In this document: positions 10,961-27,872 of the stretch, in pieces
Layout of the letters: every line of letters starts with the position of its first letter
How positions within the stretch are numbered: position 1 is the first letter of the stretch
Assembly: GCF_050742655.1 (NCBI RefSeq)
Contig: NZ_JBOIGG010000017.1
Span: forward strand, 10,144 to 74,143
From: Paraburkholderia sp.
GTDB lineage: Bacteria > Pseudomonadota > Gammaproteobacteria > Burkholderiales > Burkholderiaceae
Reading direction: 5' to 3'
Length of the DNA stretch: 64,000 bases
Position numbers and translations under genes: made by a program
The notes under the pieces: model-generated
The model's input: only the letters and a program-made list of their open reading frames with translations
Databases searched by the model: none
What the model was told of the DNA's origin: nothing

Positions 10961-11191
10961 CTATCGCCTTGCGGATGATTTGACGGAACCGCGTGTAAAT
11001 ATCAATCCGCCGGCAATTGCCGACGATATCCCCGCAACGAAACCCCAGCGCAAGGCGAACACCAGTGCACGCGCACCGCATGCGTCGCTGCATTCGACGG
11101 TTCCCGCTGGCAGGTCGATGTAAAGCGCGAAAAGCCCTCCAGCTAATGCCCCAAAAACGAACAGGGACGTAATAGTTAGCGTTGCTCTCAT
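10961..11191 (-). CDS. small two-TM membrane protein, candidate immunity protein
   Basis: 76 aa with two hydrophobic segments around an ECSDAC loop. Its ATG overlaps the effector TGA (ATGA, 11188-11191), suggesting translational coupling. Confidence 0.6.
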   Translation of the reverse strand: MRATLTITSLFVFGALAGGLFALYIDLPAGTVECSDACGARALVFALRWGFVAGISSAIAGGLIFTRGSVKSSARR

Positions 11192-11796
11192 GCGATTTCC
11201 CAGAACAGGACAAGTTTAGAGTCCGCAAGATTCGAGTAAAGGTTCTCCGGGCCGACGCCAATGAAGGATAGCGGGTTCCATATCCAGCTTATGCCAAGCG
11301 TAAATCGAAGGGTAGTCTCGGAGCTTGGAGTAAGTCGATCTCCATTCCACAAATCAATATGATCTCCCGTCGGGGTTTTTTCTTTGAGATTGCGCCGCCA
11401 ATAACTGCCAAAGAAAATGATCCCTGTTTTGCCTTTTACTTTATCTCGCCAGTCCGCTCCCGTCACGGTCTCCGGCGACGGACAACCGGCAAAAGGACGA
11501 CGCCGCAGCCACTCCGACACTTCTTTTGCTCGAAGCATATGGCTAGGAGGATGACCATGGAACCAGCATTTCTCGCCCTTGAATGACTTGTTGGTGATGC
11601 CTGTACCCGCGAGACATGTACCAAAGCGAATAGCGCATTCGTCCTCGAAGGCCGGTTCGCCAGTAGACGGGTCGATACACGGGTCGGAATGGGGATACGC
11701 TCTCCACAACTCGGCGAAGGTGACAACCTTCAACGTCACTTCCTTTATTGAACCCGGCGTGGTGTTCGTTCTAACAATTGTCTTCCGGTTCGGCAT
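11188..11796 (-). CDS. T6SS peptidoglycan amidase effector, Tae4 family
   Basis: ECAIRF (catalytic Cys motif, compare NxCAxR), VKGKTGIIFF and GDHIDLWNG (catalytic His motif). Lies directly downstream of a PAAR gene. Confidence 0.82.
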   Translation of the reverse strand: MPNRKTIVRTNTTPGSIKEVTLKVVTFAELWRAYPHSDPCIDPSTGEPAFEDECAIRFGTCLAGTGITNKSFKGEKCWFHGHPPSHMLRAKEVSEWLRRRPFAGCPSPETVTGADWRDKVKGKTGIIFFGSYWRRNLKEKTPTGDHIDLWNGDRLTPSSETTLRFTLGISWIWNPLSFIGVGPENLYSNLADSKLVLFWEIA

Positions 11797-11799
11797 CGC

Positions 11800-12333
11800 T
11801 CAGGCTCCATCCTGCTTTGCGAGAGCTTCATCGCCCCAGTGCACCGTGTAGTCTTCGCAAGAATCGGTATAGACGCGCGGCAAGCGCCCACTTTTATCAA
11901 GATGGCCTGAAGCGATTCGGGTACCCGCGTTCTCGATAACATACGGATAGCCTTCGAGTACCGCACCGGGAGCAACGACGCGCACCTGTTCGTCATAGGG
12001 TTGTCTGTCTGACTGTGTCGATGCAACGACACCGCCCGAGCCCTCAAGCCCACCACCACCCTCAAGAAAAATCCCCGGATTACTCCCTACGATGACCCGG
12101 TTTTTCCCGCACGGACACAACACCCGATCCCCATCAATCACGACATCGCGGCCTTTCTCGGACATTCCCTTGCCCGTGCCGAAAATCCTGAATGTGCCTT
12201 TGCAGTTGCGGCAGGTCGCCAGATCGCCACTTAGTGCAACCTTCCTGGTGCCATCGTGGATGGTGGACGACAAGGCGATGACAACGCCGCCGGTCGTCGT
12301 GGGATCGCCGTGCCTGATCGCGGCCTTACGCAT
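11800..12333 (-). CDS. PAAR domain protein with C-terminal extension
   Basis: AIRHGDPTTTGGVV, ALSGD.ATC..CKG and DGD..LCPCG motifs, then a Gly-rich linker and about 80 aa of extension. Start moved to ATG 12333. Confidence 0.88.
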   Translation of the reverse strand: MRKAAIRHGDPTTTGGVVIALSSTIHDGTRKVALSGDLATCRNCKGTFRIFGTGKGMSEKGRDVVIDGDRVLCPCGKNRVIVGSNPGIFLEGGGGLEGSGGVVASTQSDRQPYDEQVRVVAPGAVLEGYPYVIENAGTRIASGHLDKSGRLPRVYTDSCEDYTVHWGDEALAKQDGA

Positions 12334-12758
12334 GATGTCTGTCTCGCACACGCGATGAGCCTGTCGCGGCAAACAGGCACATCGTTTCGTTCTCCCGCTG
12401 CTTCGGCATCGCTGACACGCTCCTCGTAAAACGTTCGTGGCCTACTCACACGACGCTAACGTGTCCCGCACGGGTCGATGTCAACAATTGTCACCGCGAG
12501 AAAACCTCCGCCGCCGGCCTCATGCAGCCGCTACCGCGAAGCCACCCCAGTTCCTCCCGCCTCACCAAACCACGCCCCCGAAAGAGTTACAATTGCGCTC
12601 TTTCGAGCACAAAACCCGTACAAAACCGTGCCCATGCGCCGGCCTCGTACCGTTTGTCTCGTCCCGGATTCACCTTGCGACTGCCCGCTCCAGTTGTCAC
12701 CGAGCGCTGTGACCCACGTCGACCGGTCGCAAATCCACTGATTGATTAAAGGTCTTCC

Positions 12759-13853
12759 ATGAGCCTCAAATGCGGCATCGTCGGCCTGCCGAACGTCGGC
12801 AAGTCCACCCTGTTCAACGCACTGACCAAGGCCGGCATCGCCGCCGAAAACTATCCGTTCTGCACGATCGAACCGAACGTCGGCATCGTCGAGGTGCCGG
12901 ACGCGCGTCTGAACGCACTCGCCGAGATCGTCAAGCCGGAGCGGATCGTGCCGGCCGTCGTCGAATTCGTCGACATCGCGGGCCTCGTTGCGGGCGCGAG
13001 CAAGGGCGAAGGGCTCGGCAACCAGTTCCTCGCGAACATCCGAGAAACCGATGCGATCACGCACGTCGTGCGCTGCTTCGAGGATGACAACGTGATCCAC
13101 GTCGCGGGCAAGGTCGATCCGCTGTCGGACATCGAGGTGATCAACACGGAGCTCGCGCTCGCCGACCTCGCCACCGTCGAAAAGTCGCTGTCGCGCTACT
13201 CGAAGGCCGCGAAATCGGGTAACGACAAGGAAGCCGGGAAGCTCGCCGCCGTGCTGGAAAAAGTCCGCGCGCAGCTCGACCAGGCGAAGCCGGTCCGCGC
13301 GCTGTCGCTGTCGGACGATGAAGAGGCGATCCTCAAGCCGTTCTGCCTGATCACCGCGAAACCCACGATGTACGTCGCGAACGTGATGGACGATGGCTTC
13401 GAGAACAACCCGCATCTCGACGCAGTCCGCCGCCACGCGGAAGCGGAAAACGCACCGGTCATCGCGGTGTGTGCAGCGATCGAAGCGGAGATCGCCGATC
13501 TCGCCGACGAAGACAAGGAAGTCTTCCTCGCCGACATGGGCATGGAAGAGCCAGGTCTGAATCGCGTGATCCGCGCGGGCTTCAAACTGCTCGGTCTGCA
13601 GACCTACTTCACCGCCGGCGTGAAGGAAGTACGCGCGTGGACGATCCACATCGGCGACACGGCGCCGCAGGCAGCCGGCGTGATCCACACGGATTTCGAG
13701 CGCGGCTTCATCCGTGCGCAGACCATCGGCTTCGCGGACTTCGTCGCGTACAAGGGCGAACACGGCGCGAAGGAAGCCGGCAAGATGCGCGCCGAAGGCA
13801 AGGAATATGTCGTGCACGACGGCGACGTGATGAACTTCCTGTTCAACGTCTGA
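12759..13853 (+). CDS. ychF: redox-regulated ATPase YchF
   Basis: [38 protein letters not shown] and C-terminal TGS domain ([10 protein letters not shown]). Confidence 0.98.
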
Positions 13854-13936: not shown

Positions 13937-14470
13937 TCATTGCGCGCCCGACGTCTTGTCCACACCGGTTACCGTCTTGTACGGTGGCACGGCCTTCGGG
14001 TCGTTCATCGTCTTGTCGATCACCTGATCGACGTCGGCGGTCTTTCCGAGTTCGACCAGAAACTTCTGCTTGTCGAAGTCCGGCGACACGCATCCTTCCA
14101 CATAGATAAAACGCCGTTGCAGCGTGAGCCACAGCGTCGTGCTGTCACGCCAATGGGTCGCGTAGTTGATGTTCGTCAGGCGCCGTCCAACCGCCTCCTC
14201 GATCTCCTTGTCGTACAGATAGCCGTTCGACAGCCGGCAACGCCCCTCCACCCAGCAGCTGTTGCCGCGCTCGATCCGGTAATGCGCCTCGTCGAGCCAC
14301 TCCTGCTCGGTCTCGAGCGGCCCGAGCGGCACCGGGCAATCGGCGATCGCCTTCGAGACCTGGAAGAACGGATCGTGGCCGCGGTTCACGCGCGTTTCGT
14401 CGGCGAGCGTCACCTGGCTTGCCAGCGAAATCACGAGTGCCGCGATGCGGCAACCGGTCAGGTATTTCAT
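13937..14470 (-). CDS. secreted Cys-containing hypothetical protein (BON-like C-terminal half possible)
   Basis: Start ATG 14470 (MKYLTGC...), signal-peptide-like N-terminus, CP..GP and GNSCW.EGRCR motifs, and normal codon usage. Confidence 0.65.
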   Translation of the reverse strand: MKYLTGCRIAALVISLASQVTLADETRVNRGHDPFFQVSKAIADCPVPLGPLETEQEWLDEAHYRIERGNSCWVEGRCRLSNGYLYDKEIEEAVGRRLTNINYATHWRDSTTLWLTLQRRFIYVEGCVSPDFDKQKFLVELGKTADVDQVIDKTMNDPKAVPPYKTVTGVDKTSGAQ

Positions 14471-14547: not shown

Positions 14548-14640
14548 CTTGCGCGCGAGCAGCGCGACGCGCCTCGCTTCGGCCAGACAATACGCGCACG
14601 CGGCGCCGACGATAGCGCCATCCATCACCACGAAGTCGAC
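14548..14640 (-). pseudogene. decayed N-terminal fragment of a DAO-type FAD-dependent oxidoreductase
   Basis: Reads VDFVVMDGAIVGAACAYCLAEARRVALLARK, a Rossmann beta-alpha-beta with the GxGxxG motif damaged. It has no start codon of its own and no continuation. Confidence 0.45.
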
Positions 14641-14642
14641 GT

Positions 14643-15239
14643 TCAAATCAGTTTCTCGCGATCCAGCCAGGCCACGACCGCGTTCGCTGACTGCTCCGCA
14701 TTCCATTGCGCGGTGTCGAGACGTAGCTCCGGTTGTTCGGGCGCCTCGTAGGGCGAGTCGATACCCGTGAAATGCGTGATGAGTCCGCTGCGCGCCTTGC
14801 GATAGAGGCCCTTCGGATCGCGTGCCTCCGCGACCTCGAGCGGTGCGTCGACGTGGATTTCGACGAACTCGCGTTCGCCGAACAGTCGCCGTGCGGCGAG
14901 CCGCTGCTCGCGAAACGGCGAGATGAACGTGACGAGCACGATCAGTCCGGCATCGACCATCAGCCTCGCGACCTCGCCGGCACGCCGCACGTTCTCGACG
15001 CGATCCTCATCGGTGAAGCCGAGATCGCGGTTGAGCCGCTGACGCACGTTGTCACCGTCAAGCACAAAGCAGTGGCGGTTGCGCGCGAAGAGCCGCTCGT
15101 CGACGAGATTCGCGATCGTCGATTTACCCGCTCCCGACAAACCGGTGAACCATAGTACGCACGGCTGCTGGTTCTTCTGCGCAGCGCGGGCTTCGGCACC
15201 GATCGTCACGTTCTGCCAGATGAGATTGTTTCCACTCAT
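14643..15239 (-). CDS. cysC: adenylyl-sulfate (APS) kinase
   Basis: [13 protein letters not shown]-loop, LDGDNVR, GFTDEDR.EN, ISP and [22 protein letters not shown] motifs. Confidence 0.95.
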
Positions 15240-15269
15240 GGACGAATTCTCCAGACACCCCGCGTGGGC

Positions 15270-16451
15270 TTAGGGCTGCGATACCGCCGCCGTGCGACGC
15301 AACGCCGCAAGCGGGACAAGACCTGCCGACGCGACCGCGAATACGAGCATAACCGCGTAGATCGCCGGGTAGCCGGTGCGGCTCGCGACGAAGCCCGCAG
15401 CGATACCGCCCGCGGCCACGCCGAGATCCCAGAACGACGTGAACATCCCGAGCGCGGCGCCGTGCTGCGAGGTATCGGTGTTGCGGATCACGACGAGCGC
15501 AAGCGACGGATACAGCAGCGACAAACCAAGCCCCATCGTAAAACCGCCAGCTACCGCAACAGCAAGCGAAGGCGCGATGCCGACCAGCGCAAGGCCGCAC
15601 GCCTCGACAAGCGCGGCGCCCAGCGCGACGCGGTATGGTCCGAGCTTGTCGGGCAGGTGACCGAGGAAGAGCCGCGACCCGACATACGCGAAGCCGAACA
15701 CGTTGAACGCCAGGATGCCATTGTCGATGCCCCGCTTCGCCATGTGCAGCGAAACGAACGACGCGAGTGCCGCATAACCCATCGATGCAAACGCGAGCGC
15801 TATACCAGGCACGAATGCCGTACCCGGAAAGAACGCCGTCTTTTTCGCCGCGCGGACACGTGCCGGCGCCGCCTTGCGCGAAATCAGCAGCGCGCCCACC
15901 ACCGGCGTGACCGTGCAGACCGCCCAGACCGACCCGAAATCGAGCGCCTTCATGAGCATCACGCCGGCGAGCGCGCCGAGCGTGACGCCAGTCCACATGC
16001 TAACGCCGTACAGGCCGACGATCTTGCCGCGCCGCTCGGCCGGCGCGAGTGCGACGAGCCACGTTGCGCCGGCCGTGAACACCGCCCCCTCGCCGATGCC
16101 GTGCAGCACCCTGACCGCGACCAGCGCGTCCAGGTTCGACGCCACCGCATAGCTCGCACCCGCGAGCGCGCAGAGCACGGCCCCGGCCATCATCAGTGTC
16201 TTGTGGCCGATGCGATCGGACAGACGCCCGGCGATGGGCCGCGTAATCACCACGGCCACCGCGATCGCAGCGATCACCGTACCGACGCTGACGTCGCCGC
16301 CGCCCATCCTGTCTTTCACGTAGAACGGCAGGACGGAAAGCGTCGCACCGATGCCGAAGTGACAACAGAAAAGGCCGAGAAAAAGCGGCATGTAAGTCCC
16401 GTAGAACCGCCACCCCGATGTCTTGACGCTGGCTTCAGTGCGCTCGTCCAT
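15270..16451 (-). CDS. MFS transporter
   Basis: About 12 hydrophobic segments, motif A GRLSDRIGHK and second-half LPDKLG. Confidence 0.9.
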   Translation of the reverse strand: MDERTEASVKTSGWRFYGTYMPLFLGLFCCHFGIGATLSVLPFYVKDRMGGGDVSVGTVIAAIAVAVVITRPIAGRLSDRIGHKTLMMAGAVLCALAGASYAVASNLDALVAVRVLHGIGEGAVFTAGATWLVALAPAERRGKIVGLYGVSMWTGVTLGALAGVMLMKALDFGSVWAVCTVTPVVGALLISRKAAPARVRAAKKTAFFPGTAFVPGIALAFASMGYAALASFVSLHMAKRGIDNGILAFNVFGFAYVGSRLFLGHLPDKLGPYRVALGAALVEACGLALVGIAPSLAVAVAGGFTMGLGLSLLYPSLALVVIRNTDTSQHGAALGMFTSFWDLGVAAGGIAAGFVASRTGYPAIYAVMLVFAVASAGLVPLAALRRTAAVSQP

Positions 16452-16509
16452 CTGTCGCTCCCTGTCCCGTTACTGAGCTAGTCACCACTGTCTCCTCCAC
16501 ACCGCGCCG

Positions 16510-17364
16510 CTAGCCCGGCATCGCGTGGAAAAAGTGTGTCGGCAGATGGACGGCGAGCCCCTCATAAATTTCCGCGCAAACCGCCAGACCGTCGCTCGCA
16601 AACGTGCCGGCGGGCGGCGTACCGACGCGGATCACCGACTTGCCCGTATGAAGCAGACGCGCGGCCACCGCGAAATCGCCGACGAGCGCACAACCCGGCG
16701 CGACCATCCGCGTGCGCACGATGATCGTGCCGTTCGCCTTCAGGTCGGCGAGGATGCTGCCCTTGCCGAGCATCTGATGATAGTAGTCGACGGAATTGAC
16801 GATCATCGCGTGCGCGGTCGCGCCGTTCTGCTCGATCTCGTTGCAGGCGGCCAGCACGCCGTCGACATAGCTGCCCGAATACTTGAGCTGCGTCACGCCG
16901 GGGTAGTTCAGAAGCCCGTTGGGGCCGAGCGTCAGCGCCTGGTTCTCGGCGGTCGCGAGCCGCACCAGCAGACGGTAGTCGATGAACTCGGCGATCGCCC
17001 GCTCGTCGGCGAAGAGCGCTTCGGGAAGCTGCACCCATCCGGAGATCGGCCGCACGGCAGCCTCGCTCGTGCCGAAGCGGAACGTTGCTTCTTGACGGAG
17101 CGCCCCTTCGAAGACATCTCCCGTCTGGCCCGCGGGCGGCCGGCTCTCGGACCAGAAGCGGCTCGTCGGCGTGTCGATGCGGCGCTTCCGGAACAGCTGG
17201 CTCACCATCAGGCGCGGCCGGTCCTGCGTCGGCTTGAACGCCTCGGTGATCGTGTAATCGAAATGAACCTCGGTGTTCGGACCATGGACGACGAACGCGC
17301 GGGCAAATGCCTCGCCCGACGAAAGCTGCTCGACTGCATCGACCGCGGATGGATTGCCTGACAT
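16510..17364 (-). CDS. HK97-fold capsid-like protein, putative family 3 encapsulin shell
   Basis: EATFRFGTSEAAVRPISGWVQLPEALFADERAIAEFIDYRLLVRLATAENQAL resembles the HK97 major-capsid P-domain/spine helix. The C-terminal LVGDF and EIYEGLAV..P..F also fit. It is 284 aa, sits inside a biosynthetic operon, and has no phage genes nearby. Confidence 0.78.
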   Translation of the reverse strand: MSGNPSAVDAVEQLSSGEAFARAFVVHGPNTEVHFDYTITEAFKPTQDRPRLMVSQLFRKRRIDTPTSRFWSESRPPAGQTGDVFEGALRQEATFRFGTSEAAVRPISGWVQLPEALFADERAIAEFIDYRLLVRLATAENQALTLGPNGLLNYPGVTQLKYSGSYVDGVLAACNEIEQNGATAHAMIVNSVDYYHQMLGKGSILADLKANGTIIVRTRMVAPGCALVGDFAVAARLLHTGKSVIRVGTPPAGTFASDGLAVCAEIYEGLAVHLPTHFFHAMPG

Positions 17365-17425
17365 GAGCTTGCCTCGCTATAAGGAGAAAACGGATTGAAG
17401 AACCAGACGCGATACTGAAGACGGG

Positions 17426-18151
17426 TCACCGGATCGCATGGCAAACCAGTCGCTCGTAAAACGGACGATGGTGCTCGAAGTACTGCTTGAGCATCGGGTG
17501 GTTGTCGACCGTCGCCTCATAGTCGTGGTGCTGCGCGCTGAATCCCGAGCTTTGCGACACGCCCGTATGCCACTGCCGCGTGCGCTGCCATTCGGGCCGG
17601 TCCTCGGGCTGCCATGTCAGCGCATGGTCGAGGAACGGCAGCCCGGTCTCGCAGCACCAGCGCGCGATGACCGCTCGCGGGTCCGCGATGAGCCGCTCGG
17701 CGTCGATCACGATCGGTAACGAGGACTTCAGGCCGCGCACGAGTTCGAAGATCTCGAACAGGTGCTCATAGCCCACCTCGGGACAGGTGATCGTGGGCTT
17801 CATGTGATATAGCGAACTGATCGTCCGATGCGGCTCGCGCACGATGAATGTGTGCTCGAAATCGGCGATCGCTTCGGGATGCTCGAACAGATAGCGGTAG
17901 CGGTGCTCGACCGTGTCCTTGAAGAACACGGGACGCGTCTGCGCCAGCGCGCGCATCTGCGCGAACAGCGCGGCCTCCGATTCCACTTCGACGGTCGAGC
18001 CGTCGACCTCCGGCACGCTCACGCGCCCGGTATCGATCAGTGTGACGAGCGGCTCATGGATCACGGTCACGTCGCCGCGCTCGAGCATCATGCGCAGGAA
18101 CGCCGTCGACATCGCCCGCTGATGGGCCCACATCGCGATGATCTTGTTCAC
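17426..18151 (-). CDS. sulfotransferase family protein
   Basis: N-terminal IIAMWAHQRAMSTAFLR (5'-PSB-like loop), HEPL, IVREPHRTISS (3'-PB-like) and VIDAERL. GTG start with a GGAGG Shine-Dalgarno. Confidence 0.75.
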   Translation of the reverse strand: MNKIIAMWAHQRAMSTAFLRMMLERGDVTVIHEPLVTLIDTGRVSVPEVDGSTVEVESEAALFAQMRALAQTRPVFFKDTVEHRYRYLFEHPEAIADFEHTFIVREPHRTISSLYHMKPTITCPEVGYEHLFEIFELVRGLKSSLPIVIDAERLIADPRAVIARWCCETGLPFLDHALTWQPEDRPEWQRTRQWHTGVSQSSGFSAQHHDYEATVDNHPMLKQYFEHHRPFYERLVCHAIR

Positions 18152-18177
18152 GCATCACCTCCCTTGATCCGTCGCAA

Positions 18178-19161
18178 TCATTGCGACCACGCAGTCGGCA
18201 GACGATCCCAACGATGCCGGCGTAACTCCGCCAGCAGCTCGGGCGACAGCGGCGGCGCATCGCTCACGGCCATGTTGGCCCGCACGTTCGCGATCTGTCG
18301 CATGCCGGGAATCACCGTCGACACGGCCGGGTGATGAAGAATGAAACGCAGCGCGAGTTCCGGCAGCGTGGCGCCGTCGGGCACGATGCGCTTCAGCGCG
18401 TCGGCCCGCTCGACCGTCGGTCCGAGATTCTCCGGACCGAAGTAGGTGCTGCGCCAGTCTTCGGGCGGGAAGGTGCTCGTTCGCGTCAGCGTGCCGGTCA
18501 GGCCGCCTTCGTCGAAAGGCACGCGCGCGATGATCCCGATGTCGCGTTCCAGCGCCACGCGGAACAATTCGTCTTCGGGCGCCTGATCGAAAATGTTGTA
18601 GATCACCTGGATCACGTCGATGAGCCCGGTCTCGATCGCCTTCACGCAATTGCCCGGCTCCCAGCGATTCACGCTGATCCCGATGCCCTCGATGAGACCT
18701 TCGGCACGCAGGTCGCTCATCGTGCGCTGCCACGATTCGTCGTTGGCCCAGCGGTCGTCCCACACATGGAATTGCATCAGGTCGATCCGGTCGACACCGA
18801 GATTCTCGATACTGCGCTGGGTGTACTCGCGAATGTGCGCGGCCGGAAACACGTCGTCGAGCGTGTCGTTGGCGCGAGGCGGCCACTCGCGGTTCTTCGG
18901 TGGAATCTTCGTCGCGACGTACAGCCGACGATCAGAATGCGCATGCAGCACGCGACCCAGCATCTGCTCGCTGATACCGCGTCCGTAGACCCATGCGGTG
19001 TCGAAAAAATTGCAGCCGGCTTCGACTGCCGCATCGAGGCAGAGAGGCGCGGTGTCGTAGTTGGCACCAGTGAAATTGCCCGGGCCGCCGGCAATGCCCC
19101 ACATGCCGTAGCCGATCTCGCTAACCTGCCAGCCGAGACGTCCCATCCTTCGGTAATGCAT
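18178..19161 (-). CDS. aldo/keto reductase
   Basis: VSEIGYGMW, GCNFFDTAWVYG.G.SE, VATK, SIENLGVDRIDLMQFH and VIPG motifs. Start moved to ATG 19161 (MHYRRMG), with AGGAG upstream. Confidence 0.92.
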   Translation of the reverse strand: MHYRRMGRLGWQVSEIGYGMWGIAGGPGNFTGANYDTAPLCLDAAVEAGCNFFDTAWVYGRGISEQMLGRVLHAHSDRRLYVATKIPPKNREWPPRANDTLDDVFPAAHIREYTQRSIENLGVDRIDLMQFHVWDDRWANDESWQRTMSDLRAEGLIEGIGISVNRWEPGNCVKAIETGLIDVIQVIYNIFDQAPEDELFRVALERDIGIIARVPFDEGGLTGTLTRTSTFPPEDWRSTYFGPENLGPTVERADALKRIVPDGATLPELALRFILHHPAVSTVIPGMRQIANVRANMAVSDAPPLSPELLAELRRHRWDRLPTAWSQ

Positions 19162-19199
19162 CGCGACTCCTCGCTTGTAACTACCTTGTGTCATTCGTA

Positions 19200-22100
19200 T
19201 CAAGCAGCACCCAGCAACTGACGGCCATATCGGGCAATCGCGTTGTCCAGATCAACGCCCGCGAGACCATGCGTCCGTTCGAGCGCATCGCAACCCGCCC
19301 GGTCGAAGAGACCGGGATTGTCCGTCAGCAAAACCGAGAACGTCGCGGCCAGCGCGGCCTCGTCGTTTTGCGCGGACGGCAGCAACCGGCGCAGCAAACT
19401 GAGTTCGTGTGATCCATGCTGCGCGATGTGCGCGTCCAGCGCGGCAAGCCATTGCCCGCACGAGAGCGTATCGAGCGTGGCGCCGGCATGCGAAAACGCT
19501 TCGGTGAAGCACACGCTCCGCGGATGGAATACGTGGTACGTACGGTCCCATGCGTCGATATCGAAGACTGCCGATACCACGCGGGACGCGACGTAGTCGA
19601 CCGGCGACCAGTCCGAACGCATCGGCACGGAGGGTCTCGCGTTCAGCTGCGCCATCGCCGTCAGCAGGAAGTGCGTGAGCGCCCGCGGATTCGGTACACA
19701 ACGTGCTCCCTCGCCGCCCGACGGCATCACCTCGCCGAGCCGGAACACCGTGACCGGCAATCCGGTCAGACGTGCGTCGAGCAGCATCCGTTCGGCGATC
19801 CACTTCGAGCGGCTGTAGCCGGAACGCGGAATGATCGCGTGGCTGGGATCGAACGCTTCGTCGAGCGGCGAAGTGCGGCGCGCGGCTTCCTGCTCGAACG
19901 CGCCGAGCGTCGACACGAAGAAGAACGGCTTCTCGCGACGCTCGAGCGACAGGCGCAGTAACTGCTGCGTCGCGAGCACGTTCGACGCTCGATGCGCACG
20001 ATAGTCGTAAGCGAAATTGACGAGCGCTCCGCAGTGGACGATCGCGTCGCAGCGCGCGGCGAGTGCGTCGCGATGCGATGGGTCGAGGCCGAGTCCCGGT
20101 GCGGCGAGATCGCCGCCGACCGCATGAAGTCTCCCCGCATAACGCGCATCCCACAGATGCTTTTCGTCGAAGCATTCGACCAGCCTGCGCTGCGGATCGC
20201 CGTCCGTGCGCAGCAGGACGACGACCTCCAGATCGTCGTCGCGATCCAGCAGCGCCTTCGCGAGATAATTGCCGACGAAGCCGGTGCCGCCCGTCAGCAG
20301 CACGCTGCGAGGTGCGTGTCGTCGGGCCAGCGATGGCATGTACCGTGCGTCACGCGTCTCGCGGTTACCGATGCTCGCGTCCGCAGCCGGCGATATGTCG
20401 AACAGCTTCCCGTGCGCGGTCGCGAAGAAGCGCGCATCGCGCTCCATCAGCGCCTCTTCGGGTTCGCCCGTATCGCCGCCTGCAAGCAGATGCTCGATGT
20501 GCCGGCCGGCCTTCGCCGCGCTCGCATGCGCGAGCAGATCGCTGACGCTAAAGCGCAGCGCAAACAGACGCTCGAGTTCAATCGCCGTCGCAAGCGCGTT
20601 GAGCGAGTCCCCGCCGGCTTCGAAGAAGTCGTCGTCGACGCCGAGATCCGCGCAGCGCAACTGCGCACCAAACACCGCCAGCACGCGCGCGATCACGTCG
20701 TCATCTGCGACGGGCACGGCGTGAAGCATCTGAAGATTGGTGTCGGCGAGATAGTCGTCGAGCTGTTCCTGCAGGACCTTGCGATTCACTTTCCCGCTTT
20801 CCGCCAGCGGCATCGAGGCGAGCACGAAGTAATGCCGCGGCAGGGACGCGCGCGGCAGAACCCCGCGCAGATGCCGCTCGATTGTCGTGCGGTCGAGATC
20901 CGCTGCGCCGGTCACGAAGAGTGCAATCGACCGCGTGCCGCGCTCGCCCGCGACGAATGCCTTCGCGTGATGCACATGGGGGCAGCGCTCCGCGGCCGCC
21001 TCGATCTCGCCGAGTTCGATCCGCACGCCGCCCACCTTCACCTGAAAGTCCTTGCGGCCGACAAAACGCAGTTCGCCGTGGCTGTCGAAATAGCCGAGAT
21101 CGCCGGTACGGTAGAGCGTCGCACCGGGAATCGTCGGGAACGGGTTGTCGATGAACACGTGCCCGGTCAGTTCGGGTCGTCCGACGTAGCCGGCGCCGAC
21201 GCAGATACCCCCGATCAGCAACTCGCCGCACGCGCCGGGCGGCAGCGGTCGCAGCTCAGGGTCGACGATGACGACATAGCAGTTGTCGATCGGGCGGCCA
21301 ATCGGGATCGACATGCCGTCTGCCGCCTCAGCCGGATGAAAGACCATGCCGATCGACGTCTCCGTCGGACCATACGCGTTCGTGATCCGCAGATGCGGCA
21401 ACAGCGTGCGCATCTTGTGAACCATCGGCGGCGTAATTTCCTCGCCGCCCACGATCAACTCCGCGAGCGTCGAGAGCTTCGCGCAAACCTGGTCGTCGTG
21501 TTCGGCGAGTGCAACGATCTGATTGAACACGCTCGGCACGAAGTCCGTCATCGTGACGCGATAGCGCGCGATCGTGTCGACCGTCGTCTCGAGATCGAGG
21601 AAAGCACCCTGCTTCGGAATCACGACTTTCGCGCCGGTCGTCAGCGGCCAGAACAGTTGCCAGACCGACGAGTCGAACGTGTGCCGACTGTTTTGCAGAA
21701 TGCACGCGCTGTCGCCTGCCACACGATCGAAATAGCGCGACATGAAGCGGAAGCGGTTTGCGAGCCCGCCGTGCAGGTTCAGCGCGCACTTCGCGCGACC
21801 CGTCGTGCCCGACGTGAAAATGCCGTAGATCGCATCGCCCGGTTCGATCCCGACATCGGGCCGCGCGCGCTGCGGCTCGAGCAGATCGACGTCGATCGCG
21901 AGCGCGCCGGCGCGAAATGCCGCGGGCAAATCGTCTGCGTTTGCGCAGACCACGACGTCGCTCGACAGCTCCTCCAGTGCCTGCACGAGACGCTCGACAG
22001 GCCAGGCATGATCGAGCGGCACGAACGCGGCGCCGAGCTTCATCAGCGCGTGATACGCGACCGGCATCTCGAGACTGTTCACGAGCAGCACCGGAACGAT

Positions 22101-22949
22101 CGAGCCTTTCACCACGCCGCGCGTGGCGAGTTCGACAGCAAAGGCATTCGCCAGGCGATCGAACCCGGCGTAGGTGAGCCAGCGGCCATCGAAGCAAAAC
22201 GCGGGACGTGCCGGGTGCCGGTCGACGCTGTCTTCGATCATCCGTGGAATCGCACGCCACGCACCGTTGTCGTACGCTTCGCCCGCGAGTGCGCCGACCA
22301 CGCTCTCGAACGAAGCGGAGCCGAGACCGCGCGCGGTGCCAGGCGTCGCCTCCGGATCAGTGAGCAATTCGTGCAGGATTTCCGCATACAGCTCGGCGAC
22401 CGCGTCGCACGCCTGCGCCCACGGATCATCCTCCGCGCAGACGGCGATCACCGACAGCATGTCTTCGCCGAGCCGGCACAGGATGCGCACGGCTGCCCGC
22501 CCCGCATTCAGTTCGACGGGGCGACTGATCAGGTCGACCTGCATCGCCCGATCGGGGACGTCGGCGCTGCGCGCGGCATCGAGCAGGCGTAGCGCCTGAT
22601 CGCGCGGCGCGAAGTTCAGCGACTCGTAGGGCCACTGGGTCCAATGCGCGATGCCGGGCACTGTGTCGCGACGGTGGCGGCTATCGACCGTCACCGGCAA
22701 ATAGCGGTCGAGTCGTGTGCATGTCTCGATCGCGGCGAGCGCGGCCGTCAGTGTGAGTGTCGGGACATCCGCGGCCGGTTCGATCCGTCGCACGGGCCTC
22801 GCATAATGGCCGAGTATCTGAACGGCGTATTGATGTGATATCGGACTCGATACAGAAGTTGATATCGGAGTCGATATCGCCGCATCGGCAATATCAAACG
22901 CGCTGGCCGCATTCTCGTTTTCTGAAGTCGTTAAATGTGTTCGCACCAT
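19200..22949 (-). CDS. stand-alone NRPS-like A-T-R (adenylation, carrier, thioester reductase) enzyme
   Basis: A-domain motifs IFTSGTTG, TFDSS, NAYGPTE, YRTGDL, GRKDFQVKVGG.RIELGEIE and SGKVNRK. Carrier-domain DDFFEAGGDSL. Reductase LLTGGTGFVG and YSRSKW (YxxxK). Start is uncertain; 22949 was chosen. Confidence 0.93.
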   Translation of the reverse strand: MVRTHLTTSENENAASAFDIADAAISTPISTSVSSPISHQYAVQILGHYARPVRRIEPAADVPTLTLTAALAAIETCTRLDRYLPVTVDSRHRRDTVPGIAHWTQWPYESLNFAPRDQALRLLDAARSADVPDRAMQVDLISRPVELNAGRAAVRILCRLGEDMLSVIAVCAEDDPWAQACDAVAELYAEILHELLTDPEATPGTARGLGSASFESVVGALAGEAYDNGAWRAIPRMIEDSVDRHPARPAFCFDGRWLTYAGFDRLANAFAVELATRGVVKGSIVPVLLVNSLEMPVAYHALMKLGAAFVPLDHAWPVERLVQALEELSSDVVVCANADDLPAAFRAGALAIDVDLLEPQRARPDVGIEPGDAIYGIFTSGTTGRAKCALNLHGGLANRFRFMSRYFDRVAGDSACILQNSRHTFDSSVWQLFWPLTTGAKVVIPKQGAFLDLETTVDTIARYRVTMTDFVPSVFNQIVALAEHDDQVCAKLSTLAELIVGGEEITPPMVHKMRTLLPHLRITNAYGPTETSIGMVFHPAEAADGMSIPIGRPIDNCYVVIVDPELRPLPPGACGELLIGGICVGAGYVGRPELTGHVFIDNPFPTIPGATLYRTGDLGYFDSHGELRFVGRKDFQVKVGGVRIELGEIEAAAERCPHVHHAKAFVAGERGTRSIALFVTGAADLDRTTIERHLRGVLPRASLPRHYFVLASMPLAESGKVNRKVLQEQLDDYLADTNLQMLHAVPVADDDVIARVLAVFGAQLRCADLGVDDDFFEAGGDSLNALATAIELERLFALRFSVSDLLAHASAAKAGRHIEHLLAGGDTGEPEEALMERDARFFATAHGKLFDISPAADASIGNRETRDARYMPSLARRHAPRSVLLTGGTGFVGNYLAKALLDRDDDLEVVVLLRTDGDPQRRLVECFDEKHLWDARYAGRLHAVGGDLAAPGLGLDPSHRDALAARCDAIVHCGALVNFAYDYRAHRASNVLATQQLLRLSLERREKPFFFVSTLGAFEQEAARRTSPLDEAFDPSHAIIPRSGYSRSKWIAERMLLDARLTGLPVTVFRLGEVMPSGGEGARCVPNPRALTHFLLTAMAQLNARPSVPMRSDWSPVDYVASRVVSAVFDIDAWDRTYHVFHPRSVCFTEAFSHAGATLDTLSCGQWLAALDAHIAQHGSHELSLLRRLLPSAQNDEAALAATFSVLLTDNPGLFDRAGCDALERTHGLAGVDLDNAIARYGRQLLGAA

Positions 22950-23659
22950 TTTTTGTATGGGTAGACACAGAAAGCCACGACAATCGGATACGTCGGTCCA
23001 GACCGACGCGCTTATACACGCATGCTGCACTCCAGCAAACTGCTGCCGCGGTTCCGAAAACTGAAAGCGAGATATCACCGACGGTAAGGCCGCCGTCGAG
23101 CGGATACCTGAAATATGACGTCGTTATGTTTTTATCGCGCGCCCCGACCCTGGGTGAGGCATTGGATTATTTCTTTAGCGGATGAATCGCCGGCACGATT
23201 GGAGCAAGCCATTTTTCGATTGTCAACTGCGATTCGATGGCAAAAACTTTGCGGTCCGCGAACCTCGTAGTTTCGACTGGTCCGGTTTTATCGGGTCGTT
23301 TAAATCCTGAAGAGCGACGCCGTTTACTTCTTTTACGGCATCCGTTTTTCCTGCGAATTTTCCGTAGTCGAACGCTCGCGCAAAATCGCTATCTGAAAAC
23401 CTCTACGTACTTCGATATTTCGATACTTCAATACATCGGGCACGTTCGCCCCAACCTTGCGAAGGTCTTGCACAAGGTCACGCCCGACCTCCATCACCAC
23501 AGGCATATGGTTAAACAAACTGTCCGATAGTATGCTTCGGTGCAAGGTGCGGCACTCGAGCTTTGTCATGCCGATGACGAAGTTCTCGTTGATAGTTCGG
23601 AATGCTTTCCCGGTCTACTCGCAGGATAGGTCTTGTCCAAAGGGGAGTCCCAACAGGTC

Positions 23660-25315
23660 ATGTCTGAGCCGACTGAATACGTCTTCAAGCCGCATGAGCG
23701 GCCAACGCTGCCCGGCTCTCCCTACAATCCAGACCATCCTGGCGCACGGCGCGCCGGATATTTCGTGGTCGGTTGCCTGCTCGGCATCACGCAAGGCCTG
23801 GGCAACGCGCTGGTCACGGTGAATCTGAACTTCGCTCAAGGCACGCTCGGTCTCTTCAGCAACGAGGCCAACTGGCTGAGCGCCGCCTACTTCATGGTCT
23901 ACGTCTCGGCCAATCTGATGCTGGTGAAGTATCGCCAGCAATTCGGCCTGCAGGCCTTTATCCGCTACACCCTCGTGGTGTATGCGCTGATCAACCTGCT
24001 GCACCTGTTCGTTGAAACGTTCTGGATGGCGGTGGCCGTGCGCGCGGTCAGCGCCGTTGCCGCAGCCGGCCTGACGACGCTGGCCATCACCTACCTGCTT
24101 CAGGCGATGCCCACGCCGAAAAAGATGCACGGCATCATGATCGGCATCAGCATTCCCCAGCTTGCCGTTCCGCTCGCGCGCATCCTGTCGCCCGGGCTGC
24201 TGAATGCGGGCGACTGGCACATGCTTTACTGGTTCGAGTTCGCGATGGCGCTCGCGTCGCTCACCGCGGTGATGCTGCTGCCCTTACCGCGCAGCGACCG
24301 CACCAAAGTATTCGAGCCGCTGGACTTCCTCACCTTCGCCCTGCTCGGACCAGGCCTCGCGCTGCTGATCGCCGTGGTTTCCGAAGGACGGATCGAATGG
24401 TGGCTCGAGCGTGCATGGATGGGATGGTCGCTGGCTGCCGGCATTGCGCTGGTCGTCGCAGGGCTGCTGGTCGAACATCGACGTGCGAGCCCGCTGATCA
24501 ATACGCGATTTCTGAGCAGACGCGAGATGGTGCGGCTGATCCTGGTCGCAGCGGCGATCCGTATTCTGCTTTCCGAACAGGCTTTCGGCTCGGTCGGGCT
24601 GTTGACGATATTCGGCATGCTCAACGATCAGATGATTACGCTTAACCTGATCATCCTGAGCGCTTCGATCGCCGGAATCGCGGTCAGCGTATTGACCTTC
24701 AGGGCGGACAACCCCGCCTCAGCGGTTCGGCTGGCCACGCTCCTCATCGCGATTGGCGCATTCATGGATGCCGACGCGACCAACCTCACGCGGCCGGAGA
24801 ATTTCTACTTCACCCAGGCGCTGATCGGGTTCGCGTCGCTGCTGTTCCTCGGGCGTGCGATGGTAATCGGTATGGCGCAGATGCTACTGTCGGGCGGACA
24901 GAATTACGTCAGCTTCGTGGTGCTGTTCAATATCAGCCAGAGTGTCGGCGGACAGGTCGGCACCGCGTTGCTTGGCACCTTTCAGATAATGCGCGAGCGA
25001 TTCCATTCAAACGAACTGGTGCAGACCATCACGCTGGCCAATCCGGTAATCGCCGCACGAATCCGTGCGAATGGCGTGGCTGGGTTTTCGCAGATCGTGT
25101 CGCGTGAAGCCAATATCCTTGCGTATAACGATGTATTCCTGCTCGTTGGGGTACTCGCTGTGATGACATTGATCTGGGGTTTGGTGATTCGTTGGTCGAT
25201 ACGGCGGCGTAACGAGCTTTCGCCGATCATCGTTCTCCAGCAGAAAATAATGCAGGCACAGGCTGCACAAGCCGCACAAGCCGCACAAGCCGCACAAGCC
25301 GCTCATCAAAAATAA
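23660..25315 (+). CDS. MFS efflux inner-membrane subunit (DHA2/EmrB-like)
   Basis: About 14 hydrophobic segments and W.SWRWMFY-like DWHMLYWFEF. First gene of an MFS-MFP-OMF triad. Start moved to ATG 23660. Confidence 0.85.
   Translation: MSEPTEYVFKPHERPTLPGSPYNPDHPGARRAGYFVVGCLLGITQGLGNALVTVNLNFAQGTLGLFSNEANWLSAAYFMVYVSANLMLVKYRQQFGLQAFIRYTLVVYALINLLHLFVETFWMAVAVRAVSAVAAAGLTTLAITYLLQAMPTPKKMHGIMIGISIPQLAVPLARILSPGLLNAGDWHMLYWFEFAMALASLTAVMLLPLPRSDRTKVFEPLDFLTFALLGPGLALLIAVVSEGRIEWWLERAWMGWSLAAGIALVVAGLLVEHRRASPLINTRFLSRREMVRLILVAAAIRILLSEQAFGSVGLLTIFGMLNDQMITLNLIILSASIAGIAVSVLTFRADNPASAVRLATLLIAIGAFMDADATNLTRPENFYFTQALIGFASLLFLGRAMVIGMAQMLLSGGQNYVSFVVLFNISQSVGGQVGTALLGTFQIMRERFHSNELVQTITLANPVIAARIRANGVAGFSQIVSREANILAYNDVFLLVGVLAVMTLIWGLVIRWSIRRRNELSPIIVLQQKIMQAQAAQAAQAAQAAQAAHQK
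25265..25300 (+). repeat. 9-bp coding tandem repeat (GCACAAGCC)x4
   Basis: Four exact copies at 25265, 25274, 25283 and 25292, preceded by a degenerate GCACAGGCT. Encodes the (AQA)n tail of the MFS. Confidence 0.95.
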
Positions 25316-25338
25316 CGACGGAAAGGGAACGTGATTCG

Positions 25339-26481
25339 ATGAATACACCGAACGCAGGGCCGTCGAAGGCCGCCAACGAGCCGCCTGCTGCTGCCGCTGC
25401 TACAGCGGACCCGCTAGGCCCGCCGCGCGGATGGCGCCCACCCGAGAAAAATCAGGCGACCATCATCGGCATCGTGGTGCTCGCGATCATCGCGATACTC
25501 GTCATCCTGTACGCATGGCGGTTGCCACCGTTCTCCAGCTTGCCGGAAAAGACCGATAACGCCTACGTGCGCGGCTTCGTGACGGTCATCAGCCCACAGG
25601 TGAGCGGTTATGTCACGACCGTGCCGGTCAGCGACTTCGCCGAGGTGAAGGCCGGACAAGTGCTCGTGACGATCGACGACAGCACCTATCGCGCCCGGGT
25701 CGAGCAGGCCCAGGCCAACCTCGCCGCGCAGCGGGCCACATTCGCCAATTCCGCACAGTCGCAGCGCTCGCGCGAAATCGCCATCGAGGGCCAGGAAGCG
25801 AATATCGCGAGTGCCCGCGCGCAAGTCGTCCGCACCCAGGCAGACATGCGTCGCGCCGATGCGCTGGTCAAAGATGGCTCGCTGTCGAGACGCGAACACG
25901 ACCAGGCCCGCGCCGCGCTGCTCGCCGCGCAGGCCAGCTTGCAGCAAGCCGAGGCCAGTCGCGCGATCGGCTCGGAAGATGTTCGCACCGTGCTTGTCGC
26001 GCGTCCGGGACTGAAAGCCGCGATCGATGCGAATCAGGCCGCGTTGCTCAGTGCGCAAATCGACCTGGGCCACACGATCATCCGTGCGCCCGTCGACGGA
26101 CAGCTTTCCGAGGTGAGCGTGCGTAACGGCGCCTATGTCACCGCGGGTACCCAGTTGATGTCGCTGGTCCCGCACAGCGTATGGATCGTCGCCAATTACA
26201 AGGAAGCGCAGACCCGCCACATGCGCGTCGGTCAGCCCGCAACGTTCGAGGTCGATGCGCTCGGCGGCGCCGAACTGCGCGGCCATATCGAAGAAATTGC
26301 ACCGGCGACGGGATCGGAATTCGCGGCGATTCGATCCGACAACGCGACCGGGAATTTCGTCAAGGTGGCGCAGCGTATCGCCGTGCGCATCAACGTCGAC
26401 CCAGGGCAGGAACTGGCAAAACGGTTGCGGCCAGGCATGTCGGTCGAGACCTCGGTCGATACTCGCGGCGATAGACAATGA
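25339..26481 (+). CDS. HlyD/EmrA family periplasmic adaptor
   Basis: TDNAYV.G...ISPQVSG, TIIRAPVDG and NATGNFVKVAQRIAVRI motifs. Confidence 0.92.
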   Translation: MNTPNAGPSKAANEPPAAAAATADPLGPPRGWRPPEKNQATIIGIVVLAIIAILVILYAWRLPPFSSLPEKTDNAYVRGFVTVISPQVSGYVTTVPVSDFAEVKAGQVLVTIDDSTYRARVEQAQANLAAQRATFANSAQSQRSREIAIEGQEANIASARAQVVRTQADMRRADALVKDGSLSRREHDQARAALLAAQASLQQAEASRAIGSEDVRTVLVARPGLKAAIDANQAALLSAQIDLGHTIIRAPVDGQLSEVSVRNGAYVTAGTQLMSLVPHSVWIVANYKEAQTRHMRVGQPATFEVDALGGAELRGHIEEIAPATGSEFAAIRSDNATGNFVKVAQRIAVRINVDPGQELAKRLRPGMSVETSVDTRGDRQ

Positions 26482-27872
26482 GCTGCCGCGTTCCTCTCCT
26501 CGTTCTTGCCCTCGCCATGCTGACGGCCTGTAACGGACCACCAGTCAAGACCGCGGCAGTGCCCGACGTCACACCGCCTGCGACGTGGCGTACCGACGCC
26601 GGACCGACGATGCCGCTGGACACCGCCTGGTGGCGGCAATTCGGCGATCCGGTCCTGACTGCGCTGGTCGAAAAGGCGCTGGCCAACAATACCGATATCA
26701 ACGTCGCCATCAGTCGCGTGCGCGCAGCGCGTGCCAATGTGCAACTGGCTCGTGCAGCGCTTCTGCCGACGCTCGATTTCAACGCCGGTGGTGTGCGCTC
26801 GACCAGCGTCGGCCCCTTCGGCGAACCGCTTCACCAGAGTGGCGGGCAGTTCGAGGTCGAAGCGGCGTGGGAGGTGGATCTGTTCGGCCGGCTGTCGGAT
26901 CAACGTTCAGCGGCACGCGATGCGTATCTGGCCAGCGAAGCAGCACGGGACGCGACGCGGTTGTCGATTGCCGGTTCGACGGCGAGCGGCTACATCACGC
27001 TGCTGAGCCTCGACGCCCAATTGAAGATCGCGCACCAGACGCTGGCTGCGCGCAAGGATTCGCTGCGTCTTGCGAAGCGGCAGTTCGATGAGGGTTATTC
27101 GTCGAAGCTGGAGCTGCAACAGGCGCAGGCGGAATACGAATCGACCGAGCAACTCATTCCCAGCACCGAACTGGCTATTGCCAGGACCGAGAATGCATTG
27201 AGCCTGCTCACCGATGAAACGCCGGCAGCGATCGAGCGCGGTGGAATCTTCGATGCGTTGGCTGAGCCCAGCATCCCTGCGGGTCTGCCGTCGAGCCTGT
27301 TGCGCCGCCGCCCCGATGTCGCGGAGGCGGAGTATCAACTCGCGGCAGCAGACAAGTCACTGCTCGTGGCACGGAAGAATTTTCTGCCGCAGGTGCAGCT
27401 ATCGACCGCGCTCGGTCGGTCCTTTTCCACCGCACAGATTGACCCGATCACGATCTGGTCGCTGGGCGGCAGTATTCTCGCTCCGTTGTTCGAGGGCGGA
27501 AGGCTGACCGCCGAGGCCGAGAAGGCCGGCGCGCAGCGCGATCAGGCAGCGTTCGCCTATCGCGGCACAGTGCTGACTGCCTTCCGCGAAGTGGAAGACG
27601 CGCTCGCTTCGGCAAAGGACTACGACGAGCAGTTGACGCTCGTCAAAGCGCAGCGCGATACGCTGGTCGAAACGTTGCGCATCGCCACCAATCGCTATCG
27701 CGAAGGCTATACGACCTATCTGGATCAGCTCGATGCACAGCGTAATCTGCTCTCGGCGCAACTCAGTGTCGTGCAGATCCGCGCCAGCGCGCTGAGCTCG
27801 CGTGTGCAGCTTTATCAAGCGATGGGCGGTGGCTGGAGCGCCGATAGTATCGATCAGGCGAAGGCGGAATAG
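26478..27872 (+). CDS. outer membrane efflux factor (NodT/OprM family) lipoprotein
   Basis: Lipobox LTAC, WEVDLFGR, PSSLLRRRPDVAEAE and LYQAMGGGW motifs. Confidence 0.93.
   Translation: MSCRVPLLVLALAMLTACNGPPVKTAAVPDVTPPATWRTDAGPTMPLDTAWWRQFGDPVLTALVEKALANNTDINVAISRVRAARANVQLARAALLPTLDFNAGGVRSTSVGPFGEPLHQSGGQFEVEAAWEVDLFGRLSDQRSAARDAYLASEAARDATRLSIAGSTASGYITLLSLDAQLKIAHQTLAARKDSLRLAKRQFDEGYSSKLELQQAQAEYESTEQLIPSTELAIARTENALSLLTDETPAAIERGGIFDALAEPSIPAGLPSSLLRRRPDVAEAEYQLAAADKSLLVARKNFLPQVQLSTALGRSFSTAQIDPITIWSLGGSILAPLFEGGRLTAEAEKAGAQRDQAAFAYRGTVLTAFREVEDALASAKDYDEQLTLVKAQRDTLVETLRIATNRYREGYTTYLDQLDAQRNLLSAQLSVVQIRASALSSRVQLYQAMGGGWSADSIDQAKAE

Follow-up and report, generated by a model that had tools for sequence, protein, structure and literature searches.

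A Gram-negative family 3 encapsulin operon with a predicted amino acid reduction and sulfation pathway and a deleted dehydrogenase gene

We analysed a 64,000-nucleotide stretch of a Paraburkholderia sp. genome (contig NZ_JBOIGG010000017.1, positions 10,144 to 74,143; hereafter the window), in which the gene for a virus-derived family 3 encapsulin shell protein stands within an operon of six co-oriented minus-strand genes (14643-22949). The other five genes encode a nonribosomal peptide synthetase (NRPS)-like adenylation-thiolation-reductase protein (A-T-R), an aldo/keto reductase (AKR), a sulfotransferase (ST), a major facilitator superfamily (MFS) transporter and the adenylyl-sulfate kinase CysC. 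We favour, with somewhat better than even confidence, the reading that this is a horizontally acquired Burkholderiaceae cluster of the 'Micromonospora/Nocardia' class that makes a sulfated, amino-acid-derived metabolite through reduction, sulfation, export and confinement by the shell. The locus is a Gram-negative, slightly degenerate copy of a described but uncharacterised kind of cluster. New here are the conserved adenylation (A) domain code, a DauA-like dehydrogenase partner and its deletion in this genome, a half condensation (C) domain in the A-T-R, the fold likeness of the ST and the finding of cysC only in proteobacterial versions.

The open reading frame (ORF) listing and family scans located the six genes as follows, with intergenic gaps of at most 61 bp. 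An initial annotation from the sequence had described six tightly packed co-oriented genes, and family scans above curated cut-offs bore out its coordinates, strand and all six identities.

19200..22949, minus strand: NRPS-like A-T-R; start assigned to the ATG at 22949, with the frame open up to a GTG at 23078
18178..19203, minus strand: AKR (PF00248); probable start at the ATG of 19161
17426..18151, minus strand: predicted ST of the type using 3'-phosphoadenosine 5'-phosphosulfate (PAPS) (PF19798, Sulfotransfer_5, 4.5e-11)
16510..17364, minus strand: family 3 encapsulin (HK97-fold) shell protein (NF041188, encap_f3)
15270..16451, minus strand: MFS transporter, presumed exporter (MFS_1, 5.6e-43; NF003477, 245 bits)
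14643..15239, minus strand: adenylyl-sulfate kinase CysC (TIGR00455, 244.8 bits; cut-off 138.7)

Gene order, distribution and described relatives

A scan of species-representative genomes yielded 76 loci, in which tblastn searches with the window's proteins then located the operon genes. The 75 shell loci come from Burkholderiales, Alphaproteobacteria, Eremiobacterota and many Actinomycetota, and in 73 of them the AKR and ST genes immediately precede the shell gene. The initial annotation had named failing co-conservation as grounds for its own refutation, and the grouping came through that test strongly. The A-T-R gene is inside the fetched locus in 67-69 cases and is present wherever the flank was available. 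Across loci, the operon genes are separated by median gaps of 3-18 bp, with many stop codons overlapping the start codon that follows. Recurrence of one gene order in more than 70 genomes puts the grouping well outside what chance would produce.

Two kinds of locus depart from this arrangement. In three Eremiobacterota loci (L013, L015 and L016), about 8 kb separate the AKR-ST-shell-MFS block from the A-T-R gene upstream of it, and a ThiO enzyme takes the place of the DauA-like one; an apparent absence of the A-T-R gene from this phylum was rejected as a locus-edge artefact. A Streptosporangiaceae metagenome-assembled genome (L052:8576-12095) has consecutive DauA-like, shell and MFS genes, and genes for the A-T-R, AKR and ST are absent within 10 kb.

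Andreas and Giessen (2021) defined the family 3 'natural product encapsulins' and divided them into six cluster classes (PMC8346489). They described recurrent pairs of sulfotransferases and reductases, proposed that hydroxyl groups are sulfated, and already put forward the reduction, sulfation and sequestration of an aldehyde (PMC8346489). The legend of their Fig. S9 mentions a Micromonospora and Nocardia class with an amino-acid-derived pathway, and nodes in their network file are labelled 'Micromonospora/Nocardia' (PMC8346489). More than 20 Micromonospora loci and one from Nocardia are co-linear with the window locus and share its gene order, which places it in this class as far as the legend and the node labels delimit it. 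The Micromonospora and Nocardia shells are 57-64% identical to the window shell, and the order A-T-R, AKR, ST, shell, MFS is the same. The window differs in its Gram-negative Burkholderiaceae host, in the cysC and signal-peptide genes appended to the operon, in an A-T-R that keeps a half condensation domain where many actinobacterial copies have none, and in the deletion of the dehydrogenase gene.

The closest complete relative is that of Trinickia terrae 7GSK02 (NZ_SWJE01000004.1, locus L003), with 71-86% protein identity. Its order is identical to that of the window through cysC and the signal-peptide protein, whereas an intact 387-residue dehydrogenase stands between cysC and the last gene and the genomic flanks differ. 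Among family 3 clusters, a product is known only for the chloromyxamide cluster of Myxococcus sp. MCy10608 (cited in PMC8346489). Like the window, it holds a family 3 shell gene within a biosynthetic cluster; unlike the window, it combines NRPS/polyketide synthase (PKS) genes with the amino-group carrier protein LysW and has no A-T-R/AKR/ST triad.

Within the genus, the shell gene occurs in one of 37 genomes, the window's own (6.77 Mb). In a tree of concatenated AKR, ST and shell sequences, a Burkholderiales clade contains the window as the sister of a Trinickia clade, and all non-actinobacterial copies form one clade (support 98) amid actinobacterial diversity. The window's flanking genes are linked to the operon in no other locus. 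This tree placement and the unlinked flanks point to a mobile island inherited as a unit, and the comparison indicates that this genome acquired the operon horizontally. Pairwise ratios of nonsynonymous to synonymous substitution rates (dN/dS) between the window and Trinickia lie at 0.10-0.26 across the six operon genes and equal the values between Trinickia copies. No decay is evident in the genes that remain, though pairwise dN/dS cannot isolate the terminal branch.

Predicted enzymes and the proposed pathway

The first gene encodes a stand-alone NRPS-like module. Its domains matched AMP-binding (2.4e-70), TIGR01733 (344.8 bits; cut-off 317.4) and PP-binding (1e-9), and the thioester reductase match was borderline (TIGR01746, 213.5 bits against a cut-off of 213.35). 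The motifs were intact on reading (FTSGTTGRAK, NAYGPTE, the GGDS(L) carrier serine, TGGTGFVG and YSRSK); the protein carries the A-domain cores, the phosphopantetheine serine, and a reductase of the short-chain dehydrogenase/reductase type with its nucleotide-binding motif and YxxxK. The best NCBIfam match was MxcG of the myxochelin pathway, at 410.7 bits over the A-T-R and the end of the condensation domain. MxcG and other NRPS modules with terminal reductases share reductive product release with the A-T-R, but the score is far under the MxcG equivalog cut-off of 2300, and the A-T-R is a single stand-alone module with only half a condensation domain and a different specificity code.

The ten specificity positions were located by motif. 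The code reads DSWSIGAIGK in the window and DSW[SAT][IV]G[GA]IGK in 62 of 62 orthologues. In GrsA numbering, the pocket keeps Asp235 and Lys517, which by the specificity-code rules implies an alpha-amino acid substrate, and contains neither a charged nor a polar selector residue. The code for Phe is similar, but several positions here have smaller residues. The pattern suggests one conserved substrate across phyla, hydrophobic and probably aromatic.

The N-terminal ~200 residues of the A-T-R had no Pfam match. An AlphaFold2 model of this domain (predicted local distance difference test, pLDDT, 82.7) was searched with Foldseek, and the top PDB matches were all NRPS condensation-adenylation or condensation domains (Txo1, LgrA, SrfA-C and CDA-C1), with E values down to 6e-8. 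By this structural comparison, the N-terminus is predicted to be the vestigial C-terminal lobe of a condensation domain from which the HHxxxDG catalytic lobe is missing:

22164..22838, minus strand: half condensation domain and linker to the A domain, within the A-T-R (AlphaFold2 and Foldseek)

The half domain is kept in proteobacterial and some actinobacterial orthologues and missing from many others. At 21 actinobacterial loci (for example L026:2919-4574), the A-T-R gene is preceded by one for a FadD-like acyl-CoA ligase (NF004837, 567 bits); this ligase gene is found in Streptomyces, Nonomuraea and some Micromonospora, mostly where the A-T-R is without the half condensation domain.

The AKR matched PF00248 at 6e-51 (173.7 bits), is 72-86% identical across phyla and has a conserved D/Y/K/H tetrad; its nearest sequence in the PDB is IolS (AKR11). 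Past the Pfam domain, residues 328-340 (~18181-18222) form a tail, R-x-H-R-W-D-R-x-P-x-x-W-S, at least 95% conserved in 73 orthologues. This tail could be part of a substrate loop or a candidate shell-targeting peptide.

Residues invariant in 36 ST orthologues comprise a loop resembling the 5'-phosphosulfate-binding loop (W8-A9-H10-x-R12-x-x-S15-T16), the pair H32-E33, and R105...S113. The AlphaFold2 model (pLDDT 94.8) matched best, among PDB folds, the ST domains of olefin synthase (4gox) and CurM (4gbm), followed by TPST and 3-OST. With a phosphosulfate loop, an Arg...Ser pair of the kind that binds the 3'-phosphate and a fold matching sulfotransferases with bound 3'-phosphoadenosine 5'-phosphate, the product of 17426..18151 is predicted to be a PAPS-dependent sulfotransferase.

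CysC has an intact P-loop (GLSGAGKST). Its gene is linked to the operon in only nine loci, all proteobacterial. The host genome has further APS-kinase (adenylyl-sulfate kinase) loci elsewhere, and such a locus is present in 21 of 22 sampled congeners; a role in compensating for a host unable to make PAPS was accordingly rejected, and the operon cysC is an extra copy. Two of these other loci are at G000:C10:86765-87215 and G000:C27:20717-21166 of the same genome; the match on contig 10 is broken into two neighbouring pieces, suggesting a frameshift or a split gene.

In the pathway that we propose, the A-T-R would load a single specific amino acid, hydrophobic and probably aromatic, and release it as an amino aldehyde, the AKR would reduce this to an amino alcohol, and the ST would convert the alcohol to an O-sulfate ester with PAPS supplemented by the operon CysC. 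The MFS pump would export the product, and the shell protein would assemble a compartment holding one or more pathway enzymes or the reactive intermediate. In other genomes, the DauA-like dehydrogenase would add a further C-N oxidation step. The order from amino acid through aldehyde, alcohol and sulfate ester to export, which the initial annotation had also proposed, fits the conserved catalytic motifs.

A different fate of the sulfate was considered. As a leaving group, it would let an O-sulfated 2-amino alcohol close to an aziridine by intramolecular displacement, or undergo elimination after C-N oxidation by the DauA-like enzyme, and the shell would confine the alkylating species until export. 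The Wenker synthesis is the chemical counterpart of such an O-sulfate displacement, and in the azinomycin, ficellomycin and vazabitide pathways a sulfotransferase and an amino-group carrier protein lead to aziridines by sulfate elimination. Other family 3 classes combine sulfotransferases with amino-group carrier proteins (PMC8346489), and a toxic electrophile would account for both the shell and the tightly coupled exporter. The best structural matches of the ST, CurM and olefin synthase, both install sulfate for elimination, and they share the PAPS-dependent chemistry of the operon ST. They are, however, embedded in PKS modules and act on a beta-hydroxyacyl-acyl carrier protein, and the operon ST is ~15% identical to them at a TM-score of ~0.5. 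With TM-scores of 0.5-0.56 and TPST and 3-OST scoring about equally, the match is that of a generic fold, and at this level the likeness is only a hint.

Three further points tell against a leaving-group role: the operon conserves no separate cyclase candidate, the literature search found no link between encapsulins and aziridines, and the chemistry is wholly inferred. Beyond the core, only the DauA-like dehydrogenase family is conserved among the loci, and the likeness to azinomycin-type aziridine pathways is one of chemical logic alone. We regard sulfate as a leaving group as unlikely. The specific scheme of a Wenker-type A-T-R/AKR/ST sequence to an aziridine or related electrophile, with the shell, translationally coupled to the MFS pump, as a containment-and-handover device, is a little more doubtful still.

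The FAD dehydrogenase partner and its deletion

A gene for a DauA-like flavin adenine dinucleotide (FAD)-dependent dehydrogenase of the DAO family is found with the operon at 65 of 74 related loci, with a position and strand that vary by lineage. Five of the nine loci without it are short or cut off and the other four are of the Eremiobacterota type. Three of these four have a ThiO-type FAD oxidase gene just upstream of the AKR gene; the fourth is on a short contig. Counting this Eremiobacterota 'DAO' as a DauA-like orthologue was rejected, as it is a true ThiO (322 bits; cut-off 250.8).

The DauA-like protein matched Pseudomonas aeruginosa D-arginine dehydrogenase DauA (PDB 3nyc) over its full length, with E values of 6e-84 to 6e-85. 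Its orthologues conserve Arg222, Tyr249, Arg305 and Gly332, whereas Glu87 of DauA is Val or Ala in 62 of 62 orthologues and His48 is Leu or Val. We take Arg222, Tyr249 and Arg305 of DauA to bind the substrate carboxylate and Glu87 to bind the basic side chain of Arg or Lys. On these assignments, the anion-binding residues are invariant among the orthologues and the residue for a basic side chain is replaced in the operon enzyme. The pattern fits a substrate that is an anionic amine with a hydrophobic side chain, which may be the amino acid itself or the sulfate-ester analogue.

In Trinickia, the gene order is cysC, dehydrogenase, signal-peptide protein. The alignment of the window to T. terrae L003 enters the dehydrogenase gene by 91 nt (window 14646-14556), breaks off at window 14556 (L003 12793) and resumes at window 14471 (L003 13875), leaving ~1.08 kb gone. 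What is left keeps the TTG start overlapping the cysC stop and has a degraded GxGxxG motif. Two features are therefore added to the six genes:

14556..14646, minus strand: 5' remnant of the DauA-like FAD-dependent amino-acid dehydrogenase gene (alignment to the Trinickia terrae locus L003)
13937..14470, minus strand: small signal-peptide protein, putative accessory gene of the island, adjoining the operon in relatives

The signal-peptide protein had no Pfam or NCBIfam match. Its gene adjoins the operon in five Trinickia-type loci and lies inside it in Noviherbaspirillum. Homologues are also common across Burkholderiaceae in other contexts, which makes operon membership of 13937-14470 uncertain. 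The initial annotation was right that its six genes are present, but it missed the near-universal dehydrogenase partner together with the 91-nt remnant of its deletion, and its boundary left out this eighth gene, which travels with the operon in Trinickia and Noviherbaspirillum.

Because the dehydrogenase gene is deleted, the pathway in this genome is shortened or inactive, and the window copy would make a truncated product or none. At its strongest, this would mean that the cluster here is a recently disabled remnant with no final product. The scar of ~1.08 kb is clean and the FAD-binding motif degraded, an FAD amine oxidase or dehydrogenase is retained wherever else the flanks are complete, and the best dehydrogenase paralogue elsewhere in the window's genome is only 43% identical. 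Set against this, all other operon genes are intact, their pairwise dN/dS is not above that among Trinickia copies, and the lineage-dependent position and strand of the dehydrogenase gene suggest an accessory step, not a core one. We give a disabled remnant a low probability.

Shell, transporter and surroundings of the operon

The 284-residue shell protein matched the NF041188 encap_f3 equivalog at 340.9 bits (cut-off 180) over model positions 2-266 of 266, and residues 82-277 are weakly similar to HK97 gp5 in the PDB; the PDB copy searched held no family 3 encapsulin structure. Searching protein sequences gave 413 homologues, and NCBI lists several of them as family 3 encapsulins. Of those from named organisms, the closest are from Trinickia terrae (86% identity), Acidovorax/Paracidovorax (78-79%) and Ramlibacter (71%), with many from Actinomycetota at 50-67%. 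In the window, the shell gene sits in a biosynthetic cluster of NRPS-like, AKR, ST, MFS and CysC genes, not in a prophage.

In 55 of 73 loci, the shell gene is immediately followed by the MFS gene, and the stop codon of the first often overlaps the start codon of the second. In Mesorhizobium, a family 3 shell naturally fused to MFS-like helices has been described (PMC8346489). This tight, often overlapping junction and the published fusion suggest that the shell and the transporter cooperate physically.

The tightness of conservation within the AKR-ST-shell-MFS block, the most tightly conserved part of the locus and ~8 kb from the A-T-R gene in Eremiobacterota, would also suit a general module for reactive-aldehyde detoxification (AKR, ST and MFS) to which the shell and the A-T-R were secondary additions. 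The aldehyde-making A-T-R is present, however, in every genome where this could be checked, and its invariant code fits dedicated biosynthesis, not broad detoxification; we consider such a module very improbable. That the capsid-like gene is a prophage leftover beside unrelated metabolic genes by chance, as its sole Pfam match (Phage_capsid) and the many database records naming its homologues phage major capsid protein might suggest, is refuted by synteny, with the same neighbours in 73 of 75 loci across four phyla, an encap_f3 score nearly twice the cut-off, and flanks in which family scans found no terminase, portal or protease gene.

Several points weigh against our preferred reading of a reduction and sulfation pathway confined by a shell. 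The near-universal FAD dehydrogenase is lost, which leaves the pathway here incomplete relative to its relatives, and the assignment of the substrate relies on general specificity-code rules. The reductase domain might carry out a four-electron reduction itself, leaving the AKR another role. The six genes are putatively co-transcribed. No family 3 shell has been shown experimentally to assemble or to load cargo, and a 2024 review lists no known targeting sequence for family 3 systems (PMC11664910); we likewise identified no targeting peptide at this locus. Literature searches found neither a product for the window's gene set nor a characterised shell of its class, and no later family 3 study. 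This agrees with the initial annotation that no characterised product is known, although the gene set and the hypothesis had already been published (PMC8346489).

The operon is flanked by a divergent efflux operon of the EmrB/HlyD/outer-membrane-factor type, by ychF and by a PAAR-Tae4 pair. Between the operon and the efflux genes lies one further feature:

23079..23632, no strand assigned: intergenic region upstream of the A-T-R gene, AT-richer, presumed promoter region

GC content falls to 0.59 in these ~550 bp, which are common to the operon and the divergent efflux genes. A scan of the region for sigma-70 consensus sequences upstream of the A-T-R gene gave no match, and promoter, terminator and Rfam scans gave nothing informative. 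The efflux trio (23633-27872, plus strand) encodes an EmrB-like MFS protein, a HlyD-family adaptor and an outer-membrane factor; its genes were rejected as cluster members since they are unlinked to the operon in every other locus. At 11188-12372 (minus strand), a PAAR-domain gene (PF05488) is followed by a gene for a Tae4-type amidase effector (PF14113) of the type VI secretion system, and no core genes of that system were seen near the pair. We discounted a 428-residue ORF at 12531-13817 (minus strand), which matches no family, has an antisense-type composition and lies opposite ychF (12759-13853, plus strand).

Family 3 is the one large encapsulin family without experimental validation. A 2024 review states that its systems still lack such validation and attributes this in part to high-GC Gram-positive hosts in which expression is difficult (PMC11664910). 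The near-invariant A-domain code across four phyla points to one widespread sulfated, or sulfate-activated, metabolite of soil bacteria. Being proteobacterial, compact at 9 kb and equipped with a cysC of its own, the operon offers a more tractable entry to the family, and the intact T. terrae operon together with the natural dehydrogenase deletion in the window forms a ready-made comparison. The value of the locus is thus practical: a tractable operon and a natural deletion with which the role of the family 3 shell may be tested.

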